Source: Acidobacteriota bacterium
GTDB taxonomy: Bacteria; Acidobacteriota; UBA6911; RPQK01; CBDFMZ01
DNA length: 64,000 nt
Reading direction: 5' to 3'
Assembly: GCA_965249865.1 (NCBI GenBank)
Contig: CBDFMZ010000001.1
Coordinates: 128,415-192,414, forward strand
Every line of letters begins with the position of its first letter. Positions within the stretch are counted from its first letter, which is position 1. The notes under the pieces were generated by a model. It did not search any database, was not told where the DNA came from, and was given only the letters and a program-made list of their open reading frames with translations. The position numbers and the translations under genes were made by a program. This document shows positions 4,934 to 62,962 of this stretch, in pieces.

Positions 4934-5092
4934 TCCCTACTCGGTTTCCCATCAATATACTCACGTTTATGGTGTCACCACCCGACGGGCTGAAGAATAT
5001 GGCAGGTAGTTTATTTTGCTGTTGCCAATACGACTTCACACCGTGACATTCTTACGCAAACGTGACCATATTAATGGGAAACCGAGTAGGGA
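4934..5092. mobile_element. MITE/REP-like palindromic element, copy A (159 bp; perfect 19-bp termini tccctactcggtttcccat / atgggaaaccgagtaggga, extending to ~38-bp imperfect TIRs)
   Basis: The inverted repeat is read directly from the sequence. The inner TIR part, aatatactcacgtttatgg, recurs at loci B, C, D, F and G. It is intergenic, between rsmI and the arg-operon promoter. Confidence 0.65.
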
Positions 5093-9050: not shown

Positions 9051-9177
9051 GGCCGTTTCCTGTCAACAAAAACTTGATTATAGCGGGCATTTGGATAACA
9101 GTCATTCTAGTGCTCTATCCCATAAAAAAACCTGATCCTTCGCAGAGTAACTTTCAGCCGAGATCAGGACCCGTGCA

Positions 9178-9212
9178 CTCGCCACAAATGTGAGTGAATT
9201 TATAAAGCTGGG
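9178..9212 (-). repeat. Solo TIR-like copy (D) of the palindromic-element family
   Basis: The reverse complement reads cccagctttataaattcactcacatttgtggcgagtg, matching the left arm of copy B (agtacccggtttataaatacgctcacgtttgtggcgagtg). It sits in the 640-bp gltX/DUF3500 divergent intergenic region. Confidence 0.5.
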
Positions 9213-9689
9213 ATGGAGCTCCCGGAAACCGCAACGTTGAGCCGTCAAGCGGAACGAAGCGCTCATTCAAACCTGGATCAAGCAAGACTGGCCTCGCATT
9301 TAAAAAAAGTACGGTGCTTAAGTGCCTCTTTGGTGGTCCTGGACGAAAGCGGTTTGTTGATGACCCGCAGGTGCAGCGCATCTGGACGCTCCGAGGACAA
9401 ACCTCGGTCTTGTTGCAACGAGCGGCTTCCCACCAGAAAATCTTCATTCTGGCCAATACCGTTGCCTTCGAACTGGATCCACTGACTCGCACAGATCATC
9501 AGCACAACCTCCGCAGCCAACGTAACCCCTTCCTGTTCTGCTCCTTCTTGACTCACTATCCTCTTTTTGACCTCTAACATTAGAATTTTACTTATGCAGT
9601 ACTTAAATAACTTCTCTGACTTCCCGGACAAGAACAGCCAGCTTCCACTCTAAGCCTTACCATGTTACTGTCTTGTCTAGGAGGACTGC

Positions 9690-10796: not shown

Positions 10797-11456
10797 GTGA
10801 ATCCATTCAACATCATCAGCGTCATCTGCTCCATTTTGGTCTTGGCCTCGGTGCCCAACGAAACAGGTTTTATTCCCCTTTTTGACGGCAAGACTTTAAA
10901 CGGGTGGGAAAAGCACATGGGACTTCCCGCCGACAACATCGGCGGGAAATGGAAAGTGATCGACGATGCCATCACTGGAGATCAAGATCCTCCCGGGAAG
11001 GGAGGCTTCCTCATTACTGATGAGATCTACAGTGATTTCATCCTGAAGCTGGAGACCAAGATCGACTGGCCGATCGATAGTGGGATTTTCCTTCGCGTCG
11101 GTGAAGACGGCAAGAGTCACCAAGTGACACTCGACCATCGCCCGGAGGGTGATATCGGAGGAATCTATTTACCTTGGACACAAGGGTTTGTCCGGCGAAG
11201 TCCGCAAGGGATTCAGTACTGGAAAACGGGAGTGTGGAACGATGTTAAGATCCAGATCGAGGGGGAGCCCGCCCGCATTCATTTCTGGCTAAATGGCTAT
11301 TTGGTAACAGATTTCCAGCATACCGAAAAGACCACGCGAGGTGTTCCCCGCACGGGCTACATTGCCTTGCAAATCCATCCGGGTAAAGACTGGGTTCCTG
11401 GGAACAAGGCGCGATTCCGCAAGATCCGTATCAAGCCTAGGCACCCGCACCAGTGA
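10797..11456 (+). CDS. DUF1080 (3-keto-disaccharide hydrolase-like, concanavalin-type fold) secreted protein
   Basis: It has a signal peptide, then IPLFDGKTLNGWEK...KWKVIDDAITGDQ...GGFLITDEIYSDFILKLE...ALQIHPGK, the typical DUF1080 pattern. Confidence 0.7.
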   Translation: MNPFNIISVICSILVLASVPNETGFIPLFDGKTLNGWEKHMGLPADNIGGKWKVIDDAITGDQDPPGKGGFLITDEIYSDFILKLETKIDWPIDSGIFLRVGEDGKSHQVTLDHRPEGDIGGIYLPWTQGFVRRSPQGIQYWKTGVWNDVKIQIEGEPARIHFWLNGYLVTDFQHTEKTTRGVPRTGYIALQIHPGKDWVPGNKARFRKIRIKPRHPHQ

Positions 11457-11487
11457 AAGGTGTAGTCCGCGACAACACTCTGCAGGT

Positions 11488-13272
11488 TCAAAGATCGGCA
11501 ACCTCTACTCCCGCGCTAACCCAGCGCGGGGGCATCTGAACACCTCGAATCTCCTGGTAATCTATGTTGAGCATATTGGAACACTCCACATAGAAGTTGA
11601 ATTTCCCAAAAGTATGCTTTAAGCGTCCATCCAATATCCAGTAGCTGCGGCCGTCGGCGCGGCGCTTGTAATCGATTCTGTGTCCCAGCGTTAGAGACCA
11701 GGGGAGACTAATACCGCCGAAAGCACTGAAGGAGTGACGGGCGTAATCGAGAACATACTTGGAGAGAAAGGGAACAAAACCCGCATCGGAGGAGAGGTAG
11801 GTGTACTGTAATCCCAGCTGCCCGCCGGAATCTAGAAACCGTTGGATGTTTGCCTCGACTCCTCGCGTTTTCAAATCTCGAATGTTCGTGGTGTTCCATT
11901 TCTGGCTTGGATTTTCACGGATCCAGTCAATCACGTCTTGCTCCCAGCGCGAGAACAGAGTCAGACCGGCCATCCAATTGGGCTGCGGTAACCACTCGAC
12001 TCCAGCTTCAGCTCCCCAGGCTTTTTCTGGCTTGAGCGAAGAACTCGCCTGGTGATTGGGGTCTCGGTAAAACCGCTCCGTGAAGGTGGGAATGCGAAAA
12101 GCGTGCCCAAGCGAGGAACGCAATTTCACGGTTGGGAAAAGCCACCAGCTAGCGCTGAGAGAAGGGCTGGTCGAAGATCCGAAATTCGAATAGTTATCGT
12201 ATCGGATCCCGGGGTAGAGCACACCCCTATCGCCCAGCTTTAGCTGTATCTCGGCAAAGGCACTGCGTCGAGAGTAATCATGGTCTCCTAAATTATTGGA
12301 CCGGATCCAGTCCTCACCGATTTCTACTCCTACAGTCAGTTGGGTCTGGTCTGAAAAACTCCGCTGCGCCTTTGCTAAACCTCCGAAGGCATGGGTGCGA
12401 TGGCGATTTTCGAAAAAACCAGGTCTTCCAATATCCCAGAGAAAATGGTCTCCGTGAGTCCTATAAAACACTTGTCCCGTCACATTCCACTGCCTTACCA
12501 GAAAAAGCTGATGGTCAAAAGAGAGGAGGGTTTGATTGGTCCACTCTTTGGAAGGTGATGGCCCGTAAAAACCGTTGGCCCCGAACTCTTTTCCCAGGTG
12601 CGAAATGAACAGAAAGGAACGTTCCCCAAAGTAGCTTTGAGAGGTAAACCCAATCGTCTGAAAATCCCGGTCGAACATAAAACCGGAGGAGCGATTGCCG
12701 GAAGCGGAAAATGACTGACGTATCCCGTTCTTTTCAAACTTCACGCCGGCCGAGCCGTCGACCAGGCCAAATTCTCCTACCGAGAAGTGGGCACGTTTAC
12801 CACTTCCTTTTTGACGGGTAATGATGTTAATGGTCCCGCCAAACGCGTCAGCACCGTAAAGGGAGGACCCTGGGCCGTAGAGAATCTCCACGCGGTCGAT
12901 ATCCTGGAGAAGAACTGGAATATCGGAATTATGATGTCCAGACTGGGAATCATTGAGTCGAATCCCATTGACCAAGACCAGAACCTGTCCAAAACCCGCA
13001 CCCCGCACCGAGAAATCAGCCTGCACTCCTAAAGGACCGCGCGCTCGGACTTCCAGACTGGCCGCGTAACGCAACAGCTCAGGAACTGAGCGAACGGGAA
13101 GCCGGGCAATCTGCTCATGATCGAGCACGGTCACCTTTCTAGCCAGATTCTTAAACGGAACCGGATGGCTAGTGGCAGAAACGATGACGGCCTCTTCAAT
13201 CGGTTTCTGAGCATGAGTCGCACTGGTGATCCACAAAAGTAACAAAAGTCTGCTCAATCGTCTTGAAGCCAA
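11488..13272 (-). CDS. TonB-dependent outer-membrane receptor (short, BtuB-like)
   Basis: It has a signal peptide and a plug domain with the TonB box and the ...VEILYGPGSSLYGADAFGGTINIITR motif. The 594-aa beta-barrel ends in an aromatic residue. Confidence 0.8.
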   Translation of the reverse strand: MASRRLSRLLLLLWITSATHAQKPIEEAVIVSATSHPVPFKNLARKVTVLDHEQIARLPVRSVPELLRYAASLEVRARGPLGVQADFSVRGAGFGQVLVLVNGIRLNDSQSGHHNSDIPVLLQDIDRVEILYGPGSSLYGADAFGGTINIITRQKGSGKRAHFSVGEFGLVDGSAGVKFEKNGIRQSFSASGNRSSGFMFDRDFQTIGFTSQSYFGERSFLFISHLGKEFGANGFYGPSPSKEWTNQTLLSFDHQLFLVRQWNVTGQVFYRTHGDHFLWDIGRPGFFENRHRTHAFGGLAKAQRSFSDQTQLTVGVEIGEDWIRSNNLGDHDYSRRSAFAEIQLKLGDRGVLYPGIRYDNYSNFGSSTSPSLSASWWLFPTVKLRSSLGHAFRIPTFTERFYRDPNHQASSSLKPEKAWGAEAGVEWLPQPNWMAGLTLFSRWEQDVIDWIRENPSQKWNTTNIRDLKTRGVEANIQRFLDSGGQLGLQYTYLSSDAGFVPFLSKYVLDYARHSFSAFGGISLPWSLTLGHRIDYKRRADGRSYWILDGRLKHTFGKFNFYVECSNMLNIDYQEIRGVQMPPRWVSAGVEVADL

Positions 13273-29755: not shown

Positions 29756-30224
29756 TTCTCAGTCGGTTCTCTCTCTTTTGAATCATAGATAACATAAGTC
29801 CGAAAATGAAAACAACCCTCCCCTGGCAGCCTGTGGTGAAAATCGCATGGAGTCTCGCTTCGGGTTGAGGTGGTATAAATTCGTCCCCAGTGTAACACCT
29901 CCTCGACAATGACCCAGCATCGCCTCGATCGGCGTGCCTTGAATCGGAGCTCACGGCGGATCGCAACGCAACCCGCAGAACTTTCACCACGGGCTGCTAG
30001 TTTACGCGGCCTTTCCCCCCTGAATGAAGGAAAATCGACACAATAATTTTGAAACACTCAGCTAACAATACTTGCCGGACTTGCAGCCCATTAAGATTTT
30101 GTTCTCACCATAATTTGTGGTTTACTGCCGTTTGAGTTTGTGGTAGTTAAAGCCTTCTCAAAACTTTACAAGTAACCAAATCATCGCGGTTCAGGGAACC
30201 GCTTTCGCTCACAGGGTTGAAAAG

Positions 30225-44167: not shown

Positions 44168-44293
44168 AGTACCCGGTTTATAAATACGCTCACGTTTGTG
44201 GCGAGTGATTACTTTGTCGTTCGTCGTAACCTATGCGACGTCTCTTCGCCACATCCTCAGCGAACGTCAGTGCATTATACGAAACTGAGTACT
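44168..44293. mobile_element. MITE/REP-like palindromic element, copy B (126 bp, termini agtac...gtact)
   Basis: The left arm is agtacccggtttataaatacgctcacgtttgtggcgag. The reverse complement of the right arm is agtactcagtttcgtataatgcactgacgttcgctgagg. It is intergenic, between divergent genes. Confidence 0.6.
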
Positions 44294-50511: not shown

Positions 50512-50547
50512 AGTAACCGGTTTCATTAATATACTCACGTTTGTGGC
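50512..50547 (+). repeat. Solo TIR-like copy (C) of the palindromic-element family, ~30-65 bp upstream of the DUF481 start
   Basis: agtaaccggtttcattaatatactcacgtttgtggc matches the A-left and B-left arms (17 of 17 identical in atactcacgtttgtggc compared with B). Confidence 0.5.
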
Positions 50548-55241: not shown

Positions 55242-57836
55242 TTATCCTCGAAAAAGGAATTCGTTCGATACAATTACAGCATGACAGTAGCGTGCCCATG
55301 CTTCAAGACGTGGATTTTCTGGCGGGTTGGACAGCAGGGTGAGCTGCTCTTCAAAATCCGCCAGGAATTGCAACGCCCGAACCCGTTCTTGCTCTGTCAC
55401 TGGCCGGTTCAAAGCCTTGAGAGTAAAATGAGCGATTCGCTTTCGGTCGTCAAGCTCTTTTTTCTCCAACAGAACCCGGGCCATCAGGCGAGCTTGCTCC
55501 TGTACAAAGGGAGAATTCATCAGGTAAAGACTCTGCGTAGGAACGGTCGTGACCGAACGGACCCCAGTCGTCTCATCGGGATTGGGAAAATCAAAGAGAT
55601 CCAGAACCTCGAGTTGCTCCAGCTGGCTCTTACGAAGCATGGGCAAGTAGACCGTTCTTCGACGAAGGGTAGCTTCGCTCAACTTCGCCTCTTCCAATAG
55701 TAACGTCGGACGGCCGAAGTCGATGTTGTCAGCAACGTCCAAAGGGAGGGTAGGGCCTCCCCCCCTTACGAGGTCCAATCGCCCGCTGATAGCCAACAGG
55801 GAGTCACGATAGGCTTCCGCCTCCAGTCTTCGGTTATTAGCGCGCCACAACAGGCGGTTTTCGGGGTCGAGCTCGTGTGCTGTCACATTGTGAACGCTAG
55901 CTTGCCGGTAGCTGCGGGTCAGAACGACTTCCCGAATCACGCTCTTGATGGACCAGCCCTGTTCAACAAAGCGCGAAGCTAAGTAGTCGAGTAGTTCGGA
56001 ATGGCTAGGCACCTCCCCGCGCCTGCCGAAATTGTCGAGTGTACCAACCAATCCCGGACCAAACAGGTGATGCCAGATCCGGTTGACCATCACTCTAGCC
56101 GTGAGGGGGTTATCCAAGTCGACCAGCCATACAGCCAGTTCCAGGCGCCCACTAGATCTCACGTAACGACCTTTCAGGTCTCGACGTTCGGCAAATCGGG
56201 GTGGAGGTTTGGTCGAAGCAATCGAAAGGAAACCTCTGGGAACAACCTTTCCCAGACTGTGGGGATTTCCACCAATGTTGATTCGGCAATCTTCGGGAAG
56301 ATCCCGGTCCGTGGTCGCGATCGCCAACGGTGCGCTAGGTTTGTTGAACTCTAGCATTTGGACACGATGGGTAGCTTCCTGGAGTTTTTTGTCAATTTCT
56401 TCGACTTCTTTTGCGATCTGCGCTTTTTCGGCAGAATCGGCTCCTCCCTCTTCCAGATCTTGCTGCCGGTCTAGTAATCGCTTTTTCTCGCGGTCGATTG
56501 TTTTTTGCGGAATCAGAGCCTCCGCCAGGGCCTTTTCATACTGCTCGGTCGCTGCAGCTCTCTTGGCGAGCTCCACCGAGGTCTCAGGCAGAGGAACTCG
56601 ATTGATCTTGCTCCAAACTCCACTCTCGCGACCGTCGAGAGTCTTTGTGCTCCGAAATACCCCTGCCAGCGCATAGTATTCGCGGGTGGGGATGGGGTCA
56701 AACTTGTGATCGTGGCAACGTGCGCAACCAAGATTCAATCCCAAAAAAACTCGGCCTAAAGTATCAATCTGGTTATCCACTACATCCATACGGAGCTGCT
56801 CTTTGTCGGCATCTACCAGAGCCCAAGGTCCAATCGCCAGGAAACCCGTGGCGATGATCTGCTCACGACGCTGTGCGTCATTTTCCCAGTCGAGCACGTC
56901 CCCCGCGACTTGCTCTTGAATGAATCGGTCGTAGGGCTTGTCGTTGTTAAAGGAATTGATGACGTAGTCGCGGTACCTCCAGGCCTCTTTGGCCGGGACA
57001 AGACGACCTTTGCCCAGGTTATTGGCATAGCCCGTCAAATCGAGCCAATGACGACTCCAGCGCTCCCCAAAACGGGGAGATTGCAGCAGCCGATCCACAA
57101 TCTTCTCAAAAGCATCTTGGGAGTCATCCTTGATGAATGCTTCAATCTCTGCTGGTCTCGGGGGCAGTCCCGTGAGATCTATATAGACGCGGCGCAGCAG
57201 TGTGTAACGGTCGCTGTCAGTAGATGGACTTAGACCCTGGGCTTCCAGCTTGGCCAAAATAAAATGGTCGATAGGACTACTACTGGGCCAGTCTCCGTTT
57301 TGAACGGTGGGTGGGGACACCCTGCGCACGGGCTGCCAGGACCAGTGGTCACGACTAACGTCGGTGTCCGCTTTCGGTTGCGTGATCTTGACGGTTACAG
57401 CTGCCTGGTCCGGCCAGGGTGCTCCCATCTCCACCCATTTAACTAGAAGCGCGATCTGGGTGTCCGCTAACTTCCCACTCGGTGGCATCTCAAGATTTTC
57501 CTGACGAACCGCCTGTATGAACGCGCTTAATTTGGGATCTCCAGGGACCATGACCGGACCGCGATCACCACCCTTAAGCATCCCGGCGCGGCTGTCCAAA
57601 TGCAAATTAGCGAATAACGTCTTGGCCCGTGCACTGTGGCATTGGTAACAGTTCTCAGCCAGCAGGGGCCGGATCTTCGATTCAAAGAACTCGATCTGTT
57701 TTTGGTTGGGCTGGGCGGTCTGTGGAATGATACAGAAAAAGAACAGTGTCGGGAGTACAGACAAAACCCGACCGGAGATTGAATTCAAACCAAAAGATCG
57801 ATGAAAGCTCACCTTCGAGACACCTTCGAACCCCAA
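55242..57836 (-). CDS. PSCyt1/DUF1549/DUF1553 (PSD1) domain protein
   Basis: The N-terminal CYQCHS haem-binding-like motif (planctomycete cytochrome C domain); 864 aa. It is 7 nt upstream of the DUF1501 gene. Confidence 0.9.
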   Translation of the reverse strand: MGFEGVSKVSFHRSFGLNSISGRVLSVLPTLFFFCIIPQTAQPNQKQIEFFESKIRPLLAENCYQCHSARAKTLFANLHLDSRAGMLKGGDRGPVMVPGDPKLSAFIQAVRQENLEMPPSGKLADTQIALLVKWVEMGAPWPDQAAVTVKITQPKADTDVSRDHWSWQPVRRVSPPTVQNGDWPSSSPIDHFILAKLEAQGLSPSTDSDRYTLLRRVYIDLTGLPPRPAEIEAFIKDDSQDAFEKIVDRLLQSPRFGERWSRHWLDLTGYANNLGKGRLVPAKEAWRYRDYVINSFNNDKPYDRFIQEQVAGDVLDWENDAQRREQIIATGFLAIGPWALVDADKEQLRMDVVDNQIDTLGRVFLGLNLGCARCHDHKFDPIPTREYYALAGVFRSTKTLDGRESGVWSKINRVPLPETSVELAKRAAATEQYEKALAEALIPQKTIDREKKRLLDRQQDLEEGGADSAEKAQIAKEVEEIDKKLQEATHRVQMLEFNKPSAPLAIATTDRDLPEDCRINIGGNPHSLGKVVPRGFLSIASTKPPPRFAERRDLKGRYVRSSGRLELAVWLVDLDNPLTARVMVNRIWHHLFGPGLVGTLDNFGRRGEVPSHSELLDYLASRFVEQGWSIKSVIREVVLTRSYRQASVHNVTAHELDPENRLLWRANNRRLEAEAYRDSLLAISGRLDLVRGGGPTLPLDVADNIDFGRPTLLLEEAKLSEATLRRRTVYLPMLRKSQLEQLEVLDLFDFPNPDETTGVRSVTTVPTQSLYLMNSPFVQEQARLMARVLLEKKELDDRKRIAHFTLKALNRPVTEQERVRALQFLADFEEQLTLLSNPPENPRLEAWARYCHAVIVSNEFLFRG

Positions 57837-58611
57837 GCTCTAGGGTCGAATGTAACAGTAGCATATAAACTGGTCAAGATACCCCTACACTCACTTGTGC
57901 CACCCAGAGTCGATGTTACTATAAGTTTGGTTCCGGCTAAGCCCAATTTTCTTAAACACATCGGCTTTCACAAACCGCTTAGCTTGCACTTGGTCTATAC
58001 CCGCAATCGATACCAGCAAAATAAGCAAGCAGGTAGGGGTTTATGTGAGAACTAAAAGATAGAGGGAGACACCTCTGCCATACTGAAATTGAAAGTCACT
58101 TCCCTCCTATCTAACAACTGAGTCGAGACCGCTCCGGGTCGATTTTCATCATTACTCTCTGCTCTAAGCGAACTCCAGAGGTTCGTCCCAGCCGAGATCC
58201 TTAACAATCGAACATATCTGATTCAAACCACTTCTGGAACATTCCCAGTGTTCGGTCCTCACCCAGCCTTCAACATGGCCTCAAACAAGCGCTAGCCAAA
58301 ATTACTCTAGCACCTCCTGGTACAACGCAGGTTCCTCGTATTCAGGAAGGAGAGGCATGTGTGACTTCCTCCGCAGATCTTCAAAGACAGACTCAGCAAA
58401 CCCCGAACTGTCTCTTAACCAGTAGGCTCTATCTGTCTCATTTTTGCTGTCGGGGTCGTATAATGGTGCTCGTGGGTATACGATGTGCGAAATCACGGAA
58501 GACCATTTGTGCACAAGAGGTAACCGCCTCAACCACAGTGTGTTTTTGTGGGGGTTATATGCATCGTTTTTCGCTTGAAAAGGCGTTCCACAACGCTGGA
58601 GAATCGTTTTT

Positions 58612-59454
58612 GTGGACAAGCTGATTATCACTGCAGCCGTCTGTGGTTCTGCTCCGACGAAAGAACAGAACCTGAACGTCCCCTATGCACCGGAAGAGAT
58701 TGCCAATGAGGCCCTTGCGGCTTGGCGTGCCGGTGCAACCATCGCCCACATTCACGTGCGCGATCCCAAGACTGGCAAGCCGGATTCCCGAAACGACCTG
58801 TTTGCCGAAGTCGTGGAACGCATTCGTGCCGCGAGTGACTTGATCATCAACCTCACCACCAGCGGTCTCAACATTACCGGCCCCGATACTGGAGACCTGC
58901 GTCTGGAACCAATTGCCCTGGCTCCCGACATCTGCTCTCTGGACGTCGGTTCTCTAAACTTTCGCAACCGTGTCTTTCTCAATCCGGCGGACTGGGTCCA
59001 GAAGGCGGCCCGACTCATGCTAGAGGCTGGCGTCAAACCTGAAGTTGAAGTCTTCGACCTTGGTCACATCCGTCAGACCAAGCATTTGATCAAGCAAAAC
59101 TGCATCGCAGCGCCGCCGTGGTTTCAACTCTGTCTAGGAATTCCCTGGGGTATCGAGGGGACCCTCGAAGCGCTTTTGGAGATGCGGCGACGGTTGCCGG
59201 ATAGAGCAATCTGGTCGGTGCTTGCCCCAGGGCTACTGCAACTCCCGATGACGACCCACGCGATGCTGCTGGGGGGACACGTACGAGTTGGGTTCGAGGA
59301 CAATCTCTATCTGAAGCGGGGACAGAAAGCCGATAGCAATGCCCAGTTCGTGGAACGTACAGTGAAGTTGGCCCACACCCTACAAAGGGAGGTCGCCAGT
59401 TGCGATGAGGCCCGTGCTATCTTGGGGTTGCCGGGAGGCAATAGTGAGCACTGA
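58612..59454 (+). CDS. BKACE-family (DUF849) 3-keto-5-aminohexanoate-cleavage-like enzyme
   Basis: LIITAAVCGSAPTKEQNLNVPYAPEEIANEALAAWRAGATIAHIHVRD is the typical BKACE TIM-barrel N-terminus; 280 aa. Confidence 0.8.
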   Translation: MDKLIITAAVCGSAPTKEQNLNVPYAPEEIANEALAAWRAGATIAHIHVRDPKTGKPDSRNDLFAEVVERIRAASDLIINLTTSGLNITGPDTGDLRLEPIALAPDICSLDVGSLNFRNRVFLNPADWVQKAARLMLEAGVKPEVEVFDLGHIRQTKHLIKQNCIAAPPWFQLCLGIPWGIEGTLEALLEMRRRLPDRAIWSVLAPGLLQLPMTTHAMLLGGHVRVGFEDNLYLKRGQKADSNAQFVERTVKLAHTLQREVASCDEARAILGLPGGNSEH

Positions 59455-59621
59455 GTTAGCGGTCCTGATCGTGGGGTCCTGAACCATGGGCACGACATTG
59501 CCCCAAAAAAAATCCCAACTGTCTCAACACCTAACGGTTGTCGAACGGCCAATCTGCTCATCTACAACAAAAAAACCTTCAGGAGCCTGCGTCGGCTACC
59601 AAAATTGTCCGCCTCTACGGC

Positions 59622-60668
59622 TTAACTCCCGTCAATCCATCGCACTGATGGCCAGCCCGAGTTCAACGAAAAATGGTGCTGCTGGCGATGGATGGGATCA
59701 TCGTAGTCCTGCGTGGATTTGAATAACTCGTGGCGGCCATCGCCGGCTTCAGGTTCCGCCAAGCGGACCAACTCTTCCTTTTCGGCATCAGATAACGGCT
59801 TGAAGCTGCGAGCATACCCTGCGTCTTGCTTGAGTTCTTCCAGCGAACGTATACCCACACACAGAGTTGCGATGGGCATGCTCAGAGTGTAGCGAATGCA
59901 CTGTTCACCAGTGAATTCCGTGTTGCCAGGAATCTGACCACTCGGATTTCCTCCGCCCAGACTTTTCATCCCGATCACTTCGACATCTTTTTCCAAACAT
60001 ACAGGCACGACCTCGTTCTGAAAACTTCGGTAGTGGGCGTCCATGACGTTGATCGGCATCATCGAAGTCGCCCACGCGTAAAGTTTCGCCAGCATCTTGA
60101 GGTGAATGCGCGGTTCTTTGTGCCCGGTAAAACCGATGTAGCGGACTTTGCCCGCTTTTTGCGCCTCGAGCGCCGCCTTCATACCTCCCTGCTGGAAGAC
60201 CCAGTCGGGGGCGTTGTCATAGTCCATTTCGTGGAACTGCCACAAATCGATGTAATCGGTTTTCAGGCGACACAGACTATCTTCGAGATTGCGTAGGCTC
60301 CCATCGTAGTCGCGCTCGCAGTTCTTGGTCATCAAGAAAATGTTTTGGCGCTTGTCGTCCACCGCAAGTGCCTCACCCATGACCTCTTCGGCGTAACCGT
60401 CGCCGTACTCCCATGCGTTGTCAAAGAAGATAATGCCCTCGTCGATCGCGGCATGCATGACGCGAATGGCGTCCCTACGCTCCATTTCCTCGATGTGGCC
60501 CCCGCCCAGGCAAAGAATAGAAACCTGCTCGTCAGTTCGGCCCAGCCTGCGCGTGGGTATTCCATTCGGACTCGGCTGTTGCACGAGTGCGGTGCGGGCA
60601 AGAGCCGCTAGTTCCGCGGTACCGAAGGCTGTTTGAAAAAAGTCGTGTCCTGACATGTCCTGCGGCAT
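59622..60668 (-). CDS. aldo/keto reductase with N-terminal (degenerate TAT-like) signal
   Basis: TRRLGRTDEQVSILCLGGGHI...AIDEGIIFFDNAWEYGDG is the AKR signature. I place the start at ATG 60668 (MPQDMSGHDFF...). The listed TTG ORF start is at 60782. Confidence 0.85.
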   Translation of the reverse strand: MPQDMSGHDFFQTAFGTAELAALARTALVQQPSPNGIPTRRLGRTDEQVSILCLGGGHIEEMERRDAIRVMHAAIDEGIIFFDNAWEYGDGYAEEVMGEALAVDDKRQNIFLMTKNCERDYDGSLRNLEDSLCRLKTDYIDLWQFHEMDYDNAPDWVFQQGGMKAALEAQKAGKVRYIGFTGHKEPRIHLKMLAKLYAWATSMMPINVMDAHYRSFQNEVVPVCLEKDVEVIGMKSLGGGNPSGQIPGNTEFTGEQCIRYTLSMPIATLCVGIRSLEELKQDAGYARSFKPLSDAEKEELVRLAEPEAGDGRHELFKSTQDYDDPIHRQQHHFSLNSGWPSVRWIDGS

Positions 60669-60776
60669 TGTTTTGTTCAGAGTCAAACCGCTTTTGGTTG
60701 CGTCTCTATTGTCTCCTATAAGTGGTTGTTTTGGTACAGTTAAGTGGTGGAGATAAGTAGACTCAAACCGCTGTGA

Positions 60777-61255
60777 GTTCAAGATATCGACTTCGAGCGC
60801 AGAAAAATCACGGTTCGTAACGGGAAGGGGGCTAATAATCGTGTAACAATGCTGACTGAATCCCTCAGGAGGCCTCTACAGACAGATCGAAAAGATTCAC
60901 GAAAGGGACTTGGCCAACGGCTGAGGCCTTGTCTTGATGCCTTACGCGCTGGATCGTAAATACCCCAACGCAGCCTCTGAGTGGTGCTGGCAGTGGGTTT
61001 TCCCGCAAAATAACAGATGGAAGGATACCAGAACCAAGTGGAAATGCCGTCATTATATCGACACATCCATTTTGCAGAAAGCCTTCAAATGGGCTATCTG
61101 TCAAACACTTCGGCACTCATCTTCTAGAAGATGAATACGACATCCGTACTGTGCAGGAGCTCTTCGGACACAAGCATGGGCGAACGACGATGATCTACAT
61201 GCACGTCTTGAATCGCGGCGGTCTGGGTGTCAGAAGTCCCGTGGACGCTTTGTGA
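60777..61255 (+). pseudogene. intI: integron integrase (IntI) remnant: 5'-truncated, in three frame segments
   Basis: Frame segments: ...DIDFERRKITVRNGKGANNRVTMLTESL...; ...[25 protein letters not shown]...[17 protein letters not shown]; ...[45 protein letters not shown]. These match IntI, including the IntI-specific KYPxA..W.WxWVFx patch and the C-terminal ...MIYTHVL..GG.GVRSPLDAL. The N-terminal ~150 aa are absent. Confidence 0.7.
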
Positions 61256-61474
61256 ATCCTAATGGCAACGTGTATCGTGAGAAAATTGCATAAGACGCTC
61301 GACGTCAGGTGGCAGTGTCCCAAAGGCTGGGATCGCCGAGCTAGACTCCGGGATCTGCTGCACGTATTACCCTGGAAAGAAAGCAATAGGTAACGGGCGG
61401 ATTCTGGAGACTAGATAATCAATAGTCAGCTGGCCCAACAAGAACCTATAACAGATATCGTTAAAGAACCCACA

Positions 61475-62238
61475 ATGACCCGAAACAGGCCCCTCTTATG
61501 CGTAATAGTTGCTGTGTTACTTGTGGAGTGCAACCAGGGAACCGTCGAGATACTTGAAATAAGAATTCTGGTCTTCTCGAAAACGGCAGGCTATCGACAT
61601 GAGTCTATCTCGTATGGCGTACAGGCACTTCGACAGCTCGCGACAAAGTATGGTGTCCATGTAGACGCAACAGAAGACGCAGCTGTTTTTGACCCCAGCA
61701 ATCTCACGAAATATGATGCGATCGTATTCCTTTCAACTACCGGAGATGTACTGGACGACAACCAACAACAGGCCTTTACCGAATTCATTCGGGCTGGTGG
61801 AGGTTTTGTTGGCATTCATTCAGCCAGTGATAAAGAGTACGACTGGCCCTGGTACGGCCGGCTGGTCGGTGGCTACTTTAATGGCCACCCCAGCAATCCA
61901 AACGTCCGGGAGGGAACTATTCTCGTTGTTGAGTCAAGCCATCCCGCTACCACAACGCTCCCGAGTCCTTGGATTTTTACGGATGAATGGTACGACATTC
62001 GGGACCTGCAAGATGAGATGACTATTCTGCTCAATATCGACGAACTTAGTTACAAACTGACCGATGAAGATCCGGTCCCGGCACCCCGTCCGATCGCATG
62101 GTTCCGCGAATTGGAGGTCGATCATTTTACACAGCCTTGGGCCATACGCCGGATAACTATGCTGATTCGCTCTTTTTGGATCATCTTTGGGGTGGACTCC
62201 GCTCCGTTCTTGGGGAGAATGGTGAGCGTTTGAACTGA
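61475..62238 (+). CDS. ThuA-like (trehalose-utilisation/type-1 glutamine-amidotransferase-like) protein, single-base frameshift near 62112
   Basis: ILVFSKTAGYRHESI...FVGIHSA... in the main ORF. After 62112 the +2 frame reads GGRSFYTALGHTPDNYADSLFLDHLWGGLRSVLG, the conserved ThuA C-terminus. It is restored by inserting one T in gaaTTgga. Confidence 0.75.
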
Positions 62239-62962
62239 AACTGATAACATCGAAAAAGGGCCACCTGGCAAGATGACTCAAGCTGATGTAAAGACAACTC
62301 CAAACCACCCACAATCAACCTTGCGGCTGGTAACAGCCTACTAACCATCCTCCCAGTTCTGCCAGAAGAAAAGAGGTTAAAACCGGACCCTAGTGAATCC
62401 CGGTGTTTCGCATCCACTTCGATTGATTTGAGTTAACTGATTGATGTAACAAAGGATAGACTGGTGGAGGTAAGCGTACTCGAATCGCTGACACCCTGCT
62501 CGCAAAAAAGATTCCCGCTTTTGGCGGAAACGTCTAATTTTCGGGGCTTTTGGTTTCAAGCAGTTGCGGCGGATTTGTTGAGCTGTGTTGAGATTTGCGG
62601 GTTTGGGGTGCTTTCACCAGCTACGAAATTGACTACACTCGCTTTTTCATTCGTCACCCTGAAAGGCCACGGTACAACCCCGAAAAACCAGACCTGCAAA
62701 GATTGCTGGACCACCACACCGCTTTGCACAGCGGTTGGAAAACGGTTCGCCTCCGCTCACCGTTTTCCACCGTTCCCACAGTTGCTGCCGCTGCTGGATA
62801 TATACGTCTTGGATTCTCTCAGAATGTTATCGTAGGCAGTACCTCCAAGACACGACGATCTACGCACGCCTTGTCTCATCGACCTGTGACAAAATGGCAA
62901 TCAATGCGACATCGCCCAGCATGTCTATTACGCATTTCCCATAAAATAGTTGATATTGCCTT

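Follow-up and report, generated by a model that had tools for sequence, protein, structure and literature searches.

The locus described here lies near the end of a 64-kb stretch of Acidobacteriota DNA (64,000 nt), the whole of which we refer to as the window. It comprises, in this order, a BKACE gene, an aldo/keto-reductase (AKR) gene on the minus strand, the remnant of an integron integrase gene (intI) on the plus strand, a conserved post-stop block and a ThuA-family gene. The features are as follows, with a slash marking a junction between two positions:

58590-59502: BKACE gene, 90% identical in nucleotide sequence to L015
59498-60668, minus strand: AKR gene, 86% identical in nucleotide and 90% in amino-acid sequence to L098
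60669-60767: 99-bp spacer separating the start codon of AKR (60668, minus strand) from the intI breakpoint
about 60766-60769, plus strand: 5' truncation breakpoint of intI; homology to relatives starts at about 60768, corresponding to residue ~155 of 317
60768-60880, plus strand: intI segment 1, in the frame of 60690, reading PL, stop, VQDIDFERRKITVRNGKGANNRVTMLTESLRRPLQ
60774-60776, plus strand: premature TGA stop; CGA (Arg) in relatives
60880/60881, plus strand: junction of the first 11-bp deletion, shifting the frame by +1; relatives carry GCAACACTTGC (QHL)
60881-61117, plus strand: intI segment 2, in the frame of 60691, 79 residues, holding the IntI-specific additional domain
60922-60924, plus strand: premature TGA stop; TGG in relatives, the Trp of the GWG motif
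about 61087-61095, plus strand, just 5' of the HxxR box: loss of 10 codons, common to L001, L016, L017 and L018
61102-61104, plus strand: His-to-Gln change in the HxxR box; CAA here, CAC in relatives
61117/61118, plus strand: junction of the second 11-bp deletion (RHS/FA/THLLE), shifting the frame by +1; L002 has the same
61118-61255, plus strand: intI segment 3, in the frame of 60692, (T)+45 residues, with the catalytic Tyr and the second His kept
61253-61255, plus strand: native intI stop codon
61256-61432, plus strand: candidate attI remnant, 177 bp, 78% identical to the block behind intI in L016, L017 and L018
61433-62259, plus strand: ThuA-family module in first-cassette position; coding sequence 61475-62238, with no attC after it

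From three-frame translation of 60640-61300, the three consecutive forward-frame segments between 60768 and 61255 together represent the C-terminal 163 codons of IntI, an identity that can be read directly from the alignments. Upon stitching into a single 175-aa product, they match the NCBIfam model TIGR02249 (integron integrase) at 1.1e-57 with 195.8 bits over profile positions 136-315 of 315. This lies below the cutoff of 265 bits, because only these positions survive; the repaired L001 ortholog reaches 453 bits and the L021 IntI 492 bits against the same model. In Pfam, only the generic PF00589 domain is matched. Among 5.8 billion proteins searched, 3,938 match the stitched product at E<=1e-10, the top one being 79% identical, and the best named matches are integron integrases. 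Between conserved patches II and III, segment 2 carries the IntI-specific additional domain, which aligns with named integron integrases, while segment 3 retains the characteristic IntI C-terminus. The initial annotation had recognised the C-terminal half of IntI in three frame segments, including the insertion patch and the terminus, and was right in both respects. By homology the remnant is thus a decayed integron integrase and not a fragment of XerC or XerD.

The lesions were mapped against L001, a 1,150-bp ENA metagenome contig which is the nearest relative with 86% nucleotide identity, and additionally against L016, L017 and L002. The intI copies of L001 (131-1082), L016 (7212-8164), L017 (~190-1144) and L018 (4856-5805) are almost identical to one another although they come from different samples, those of the L001, L016 and L017 lineage being ERZ27251160, GCA_022562935.1 and ERZ23499583. 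In this alignment every lesion is directly visible. The 5' truncation took ~154 codons and with them the N-terminal DNA-binding domain as well as the first catalytic Arg, in agreement with the ~150 missing codons noted at the outset. The N-terminal half (residues 1-143) of the repaired L001 IntI has no tblastn match anywhere in the 64-kb window, which rules out a gene split by an inversion or an IS within it. The 99-bp spacer upstream of the breakpoint has no homolog 5' of AKR in L098, in the L001 intI or in any other fetched locus.

Two deletions of 11 bp follow. At 60880/60881, where the window lacks 11 bp, L002 lacks 16 bp. The initial annotation had placed this frame change at ~60925-60935, which turned out to be ~45 bp too far downstream, the TGA stop at 60922-60924 being what lies there instead. 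The second deletion, at TLRHS/THLLE, is a gap of exactly 11 alignment columns against three independent relatives. It had been explained as a loss of ttcgccactca between two ACTCA repeats; the deletion itself is real and is found in L002 as well, but the exact repeat pair is conjectural, since a single copy of the repeat is left and the relatives read CACTCCTTTGCCACCCAT (CAC TCC TTT GCC ACC CAT) at this position and offer only an imperfect CAC(T/C)C repeat. An origin by slippage or microhomology is nevertheless plausible. The loss of 10 codons before the HxxR box is absent from the intact IntI of L021, which is 74% identical. Of the catalytic set R-K-H-R-H-Y, the first Arg disappeared with the truncation and the His of HxxR became Gln, while K, R, H and Y are kept. 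With two stops and two frameshifts, the longest open reading frames left in the remnant, of 66 and 34 aa, are without the catalytic set, so that no intact reading frame with full catalytic residues is found.

The orientation of the former integron can be read from the block behind the native stop codon. Homology to the relatives runs past the intI stop and ends exactly at their G/TTAGGT cassette junction, the sequence being GATAATCAATAG/TTAGGT in L016 and L018, TTAGTT behind the junction in L017 and GATAATCAATAG/TCAGCT at 61432/61433 in the window; both the block and its junction are direct observations. Past the junction each contig continues with a different gene, in all cases on the intI strand, namely nirK in L016 and L018, an NmrA-type epimerase in L017 and ThuA in the window. 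In L016 the block spans ~180 bp and ends with CAATAGTTAGGT. Just before the junction, the relatives carry TTATCTGG three times, as two direct copies and one inverted copy, which are the sole copies in the 9.7-kb L016 contig. In their arrangement they recall the repeats to which the integrase binds in attI sites. In the window all three repeats are degenerate and the GTT core has changed to GTC, and the crossover sequence GTCAGCT, the putative attI core, no longer fits GTTRRRY. Taking homology and junction position together, we infer that 61256-61432 is an attI remnant.

The relatives additionally show how the intact arrangement is organised. In L016 and L018 the order is intI, the conserved 177 bp, G/TTAGGT, nirK and an attC (ACCTAAC...GTTAGCC, 89 nt), which folds into a single imperfect hairpin with a DNA fold z-score of -4.7. 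In L017 the epimerase stop is followed by the 5' half of an attC only. L021 encodes an intact 344-aa IntI; at least three strong attCs follow it, and upstream of it there is none. The covariance model R1, described below, also detects sites outside its training set, with 36, 29 and 27 bits in L044 and 23 bits in L024, all of them on the intI strand and 3' of the gene. Judged from these loci, this IntI clade has attI and cassettes behind intI in the same orientation, which is the 'inverted' or Treponema-type layout. It is seen in L016 and L018, L021, L044 and L024, and is assigned to the window because its post-stop block is homologous to that of the clade relatives. The initial annotation had let the AKR start region occupy the place of the intI 5' end, attI and the cassette array. 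This does not fit the clade, in which the array is 3' of intI; the putative attI remnant is at 61256-61432 and ThuA takes the first-cassette position. A comparison with related genomes for an intact intI with cassettes had also been proposed, and it succeeded in part: L021 provides the intact gene with attCs downstream, whereas the closest relatives L001, L016, L017 and L018 all carry a frameshifted intI, and among the loci seen there is no intact copy of the exact lineage.

It could be argued that the locus had the classical layout after all, and that one deletion took the intI 5' half together with attI and an array diverging from the intI 5' end, bringing AKR to this position. Such a layout is the most frequent one among integrons, attC candidates lie upstream in more distant IntI relatives (57-62%: L062, L064, L077, L032 and L054), and AKR points away from intI in the manner of a first cassette. 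We nevertheless consider it very improbable, since in all relatives of at least 66% identity with informative flanks the attCs follow intI on its own strand, with none upstream, the 177-bp block 3' of the stop is conserved right up to the cassette junction, and the homology of AKR to L098 begins exactly at its ATG (60668), with no attC.

No attC was found around the intI remnant by any of the searches applied. The covariance model R1 was built from 25 attC sites of related loci and comprises 17 base-pairs, with R and L boxes and the expected bulged positions; RNAalifold on the attC alignment returned only the R''/R' stem, and the L-box pairs were taken from column complementarity. With filters off, R1 did not exceed 8.4 bits either in 44-64 kb or in 5.4 kb past the window end, compared to 23-44 bits for true sites. 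The attC-model check proposed for the surroundings of intI, carried out with this model of our own, thus came out negative over that range. A strict RYYYAAC...GTTRRRY scan of the window returned three pairs at chance level, all far from intI, and an AAC/GTT scan with hairpin energies from DNA parameters, which recovered the control sites, returned none in 55-64 kb. An earlier energy scan with RNA parameters was non-specific (70 matches in 64 kb) and is superseded by the DNA parameters and the covariance model. Half-site HMMs, which recovered the held-out sites of L016 and L021, gave only noise at E=8-13 in the window, and folding of candidate intergenic stretches gave z-scores near zero. A homogeneous attC array in the form of a repeat family is likewise absent near intI, the sole small repeat family lying 10-56 kb away. 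Not even the one attC near intI that a complete integron has at minimum is thus found in the window, and this absence is a direct result of the searches.

Four individual attC candidates were rejected. The stretch 62292-62438 folds with z=-0.48, no better than shuffled sequence; 59520-59632, with a lone CGTTAGGT, and 58100-58225, with two YTAACAA motifs, also fold no better than shuffled sequence. In 62675-62785 a 14-bp hairpin reaches z=-3.2, without R''/R' boxes and without a covariance-model match. This hairpin (CGGTTGGAAAACGGT...ACCGTTTTCCACCG, 62720-62765) lies inside an unannotated 123-aa open reading frame downstream of ThuA and has no T-run.

The mode of evolution of the remnant was assessed in comparison to L001. 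With dN/dS of 0.62 and 19, 8 and 19 differences at first, second and third codon positions, it is evolving nearly neutrally, under relaxed selection. It is conceivable that the remnant is not inert, in the sense that the C-terminal open reading frames or the post-stop block are kept for the promoter or regulation of ThuA or for a small protein, given that the coding part is ~90% identical to L001 compared to 78% for the attI block, and that the post-stop block lies directly 5' of ThuA. However, first codon positions change as often as third ones, the longest open reading frames left reach just 66 and 34 aa without the catalytic set, the small open reading frame in the block lacks protein-level conservation, and ThuA itself is frameshifted in the window strain. 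A retained function is consequently very unlikely, and we continue to regard the remnant as inert.

The last 15.4 kb of the window are also represented in a second strain assembly, L002 (ena:ERZ25766727:ctg362009_11x_l), with 99.29% identity, 94 substitutions and 6 indels. This assembly carries the same truncation breakpoint, both TGA stops and the second 11-bp deletion, and these lesions are therefore real rather than sequencing errors. All six strain indels fall into intergenic DNA or into the two pseudogenes, and none into intact genes over the 15.4 kb; within the pseudogenes, the two strains differ by 5 bp in intI at 60876 and by 4 bp in ThuA at 62112. To judge from this distribution, the indels follow the pattern of genuine polymorphism under selection rather than that of chance consensus errors. 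The alternative of an assembly artefact, with the gene intact in the organism and frameshifts and stops introduced as long-read consensus errors, draws on coverage tags of 7x-43x in related contig names, which suggest long-read metagenome assemblies, and on the indel that the neighbouring ThuA also shows in the window. It is highly improbable in view of an assembly that shares truncation, stops and deletion while differing by 94 SNPs, of the lack of indels in intact genes, of the complete absence of the N-terminal half from the window, and of lesion types (11-bp deletions, C-to-T and G-to-A stops) that are atypical of consensus errors. There is practically no chance that the fragment stems from XerC/XerD or from a phage or ICE tyrosine recombinase instead of IntI, as the generic PF00589 match and the Xer models (XerC 5.9e-13, XerD 1e-12; 48-52 bits compared to 196 bits) might suggest, since the IntI model is better by 45 orders of magnitude in just the HMM comparison that had been proposed as a check, the IntI-specific insertion is present, and the orthologous full-length gene passes the TIGR02249 cutoff and adjoins a real attC cassette.

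The comparison of strains and relatives additionally bears on the age of the decay. The initial annotation had called it ancient, which applies to the 10-codon loss, being older than the split from the 86%-identical relatives; truncation, stops and 11-bp deletions came later. This order of events is one we infer from their distribution. Decay of intI is ongoing, as indicated by the 16 bp missing in L002 where 11 bp are missing in the window.

ThuA shows a similar difference between the two strains. A 4-bp deletion (TTGA) at 62112 frameshifts the gene in the window strain, while L002 encodes an intact protein of 255 aa; a fresh pseudogene is thus found beside the old intI pseudogene. Homology of ThuA to its nearest match elsewhere (L011, 80% amino-acid identity) is confined to ~61430-62259. 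The left boundary of this homology coincides with the attI junction within ~8 bp; its counterpart on the right is found 21 bp beyond the stop codon. ThuA may have arrived as a cassette, which is unproven: it has no attC, and the boundaries would also fit ordinary orthologs with diverged intergenic DNA. The 1.1-kb L011 contig shows neither attI nor attC around its ThuA homolog. In GTDB species genomes, the best ThuA match reaches 59%, in Gemmatimonadota or Bacteroidota, with no synteny, and a homolog at 66% identity in a Gammaproteobacteria MAG lies in an unrelated context.

The DNA on the other side of intI is also composite. BKACE, AKR and ThuA each occur alone in other contexts elsewhere, and the named matches of AKR include Bryobacterales/Acidobacteriota. 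The contexts of the BKACE and AKR homologs differ from that of the window, and the arrangement before the truncation is not recoverable from them. The homology tract of BKACE and that of AKR meet tail to tail, no more than 5 bp from each other, with no attC or IS signature at the joint, which looks like a mosaic of gene-sized modules. Synteny with the relatives L102 and L103 (~86% nucleotide identity) ends at 57834/57835, exactly at the start of the PSCyt/PSD1 gene; beyond this point, L102 and L103 continue with a peptidase M48 gene and several IS elements, and the window with 755 bp of non-coding DNA (57835-58589). Judged by synteny and by the separate occurrence of its genes, 57.8-63 kb is a mosaic, dispensable and variable region, which fits the earlier view of a genomic-island region. 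A gene-calling effect was also seen here: in L002, the AKR call on the minus strand (11012-12451, corresponding to window 59623-61062) is extended to 479 aa through the antisense of the intI remnant, which is possible because of the 5-bp strain difference at 60876.

We propose, with high confidence, that a dead integron platform with the 'inverted' layout is preserved here, in which transcription of intI runs in the direction of attI and the cassettes. While functional, as deduced from the relatives, IntI would have recombined the attC of a circular cassette with attI, the crossover taking place ~177 bp past the intI stop at G/TTAGGT, so that captured genes would come to lie directly downstream on the same strand. 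In this genome the integrase can no longer be made, given the truncation, two TGA stops, two 11-bp deletions, the 10-codon loss and the exchange of the HxxR His for Gln. The attI would have decayed as well, with degenerate TTATCTGG repeats, a GTC core and no attC nearby. The remnant would now be functionless and would mark a variable region which receives gene-sized modules such as ThuA, AKR and BKACE.

The individual elements of this picture have precedents. Same-orientation layouts are known from Treponema and from the 'inverted integron-integrase group' (PMC3607928; PMC4889954). In inverted integrons of the Treponema denticola type, intI points towards attI and shares its strand with the cassettes, an arrangement likewise seen in L016 and L018, L021, L044 and L024. 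In the window, too, the 3' end of intI is followed by the attI-like block, but the locus differs in its host lineage (Acidobacteriota), its dead integrase, the lack of a cassette with attC and a lineage-specific attI with TTATCTGG repeats. Almost a third of the intI genes in genomes are pseudogenes according to one survey (Nemergut et al. 2008, PMC2426708), and these pseudo-integrons have likewise been inactivated by stops, frameshifts and deletions. Among them, the window copy stands at the heavily decayed end, with a 5' truncation and at least five further lesions, and it is unusual in its 10-codon loss common to 86%-identical relatives. The term In0 has been given to loci with intI and no attC, and intI pseudogenes have also been described close to clusters of attC sites (Cury et al. 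2016, PMC4889954). The window resembles In0 in possessing an integrase locus and an attI region without detectable attC; however, the integrase of In0 is detected as a protein, whereas here the gene is a fragment which gene callers miss or misassign. In Treponema phagedenis, a same-orientation chromosomal integron is being lost (Wu et al. 2013, PMC3607928). There, attCs are kept and intI is lost, while the window represents the converse case, having kept a fragment of intI and attI and lost the attCs.

We thus view the locus as an ordinary case of a dead integron platform, far advanced in its decay, from a poorly sampled lineage. Since intI pseudogenes, integron loss and the same-orientation layout have all been described already, it matters little in itself. 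Its value lies in annotation, as it explains a stretch mishandled by gene callers, with an antisense open reading frame fused to AKR in L002, and flags 57.8-63 kb as mosaic and variable. It additionally cautions against placing attI and cassettes by default as in the classical class-1 integron. The relatives supply an attI candidate and a set of attCs for a poorly studied, probably acidobacterial, integron lineage, in which one cassette carries a nitrite reductase gene. This first cassette (L016 8331-9585; L018 5975-7230) encodes the copper-containing nitrite reductase NirK, matching TIGR02376 with 484 bits at a cutoff of 296, and places a denitrification gene in the integron of the Acidobacteria-labelled MAG GCA_022562935.1 (L016).

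These relatives display a further peculiarity. The intI copies of L001, L016, L017 and L018 share the same 1-nt frameshift after ~residue 85, together with the 10-codon loss described above. Only few bases differ between the intI genes of L016 and L018 and that of L017, yet nirK lies behind the attI junction in the former and the NmrA-type epimerase behind the same junction in the latter. This difference suggests either a trans-acting or other integrase, or a very recent inactivation. That cassette turnover at attI, or capture of genes without attC, continues in a lineage with a broken integrase is an unlikely proposition. If it were true, it would imply a trans-acting IntI serving an orphan attI, a frameshifted gene that is still expressed, or an attI capturing DNA without attC.

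Several small repeats were observed at a distance from the locus. A family of ~35-nt repeats (CCCGGTTT.AT.AATA..CTCACGTTTGTGGCGAGTG) occurs in both orientations at 4934-4968 and 5058-5092, 9176-9211, 44171-44207 and 50516-50547; two of the copies make up an inverted repeat with 89 nt between them, and the repeats are not attC-like. A 47-nt inverted repeat (298-344 and 9560-9606, 89% complementary) flanks a 9.2-kb run of minus-strand genes. Furthermore, window positions 29858-30000 match L103 6992-7133 over 143 bp with 80% identity; in the relatives this stretch lies 5' of the PSCyt gene, and its match in the window is ~28 kb from the position predicted by synteny. It could represent a small repeated or relocated element.
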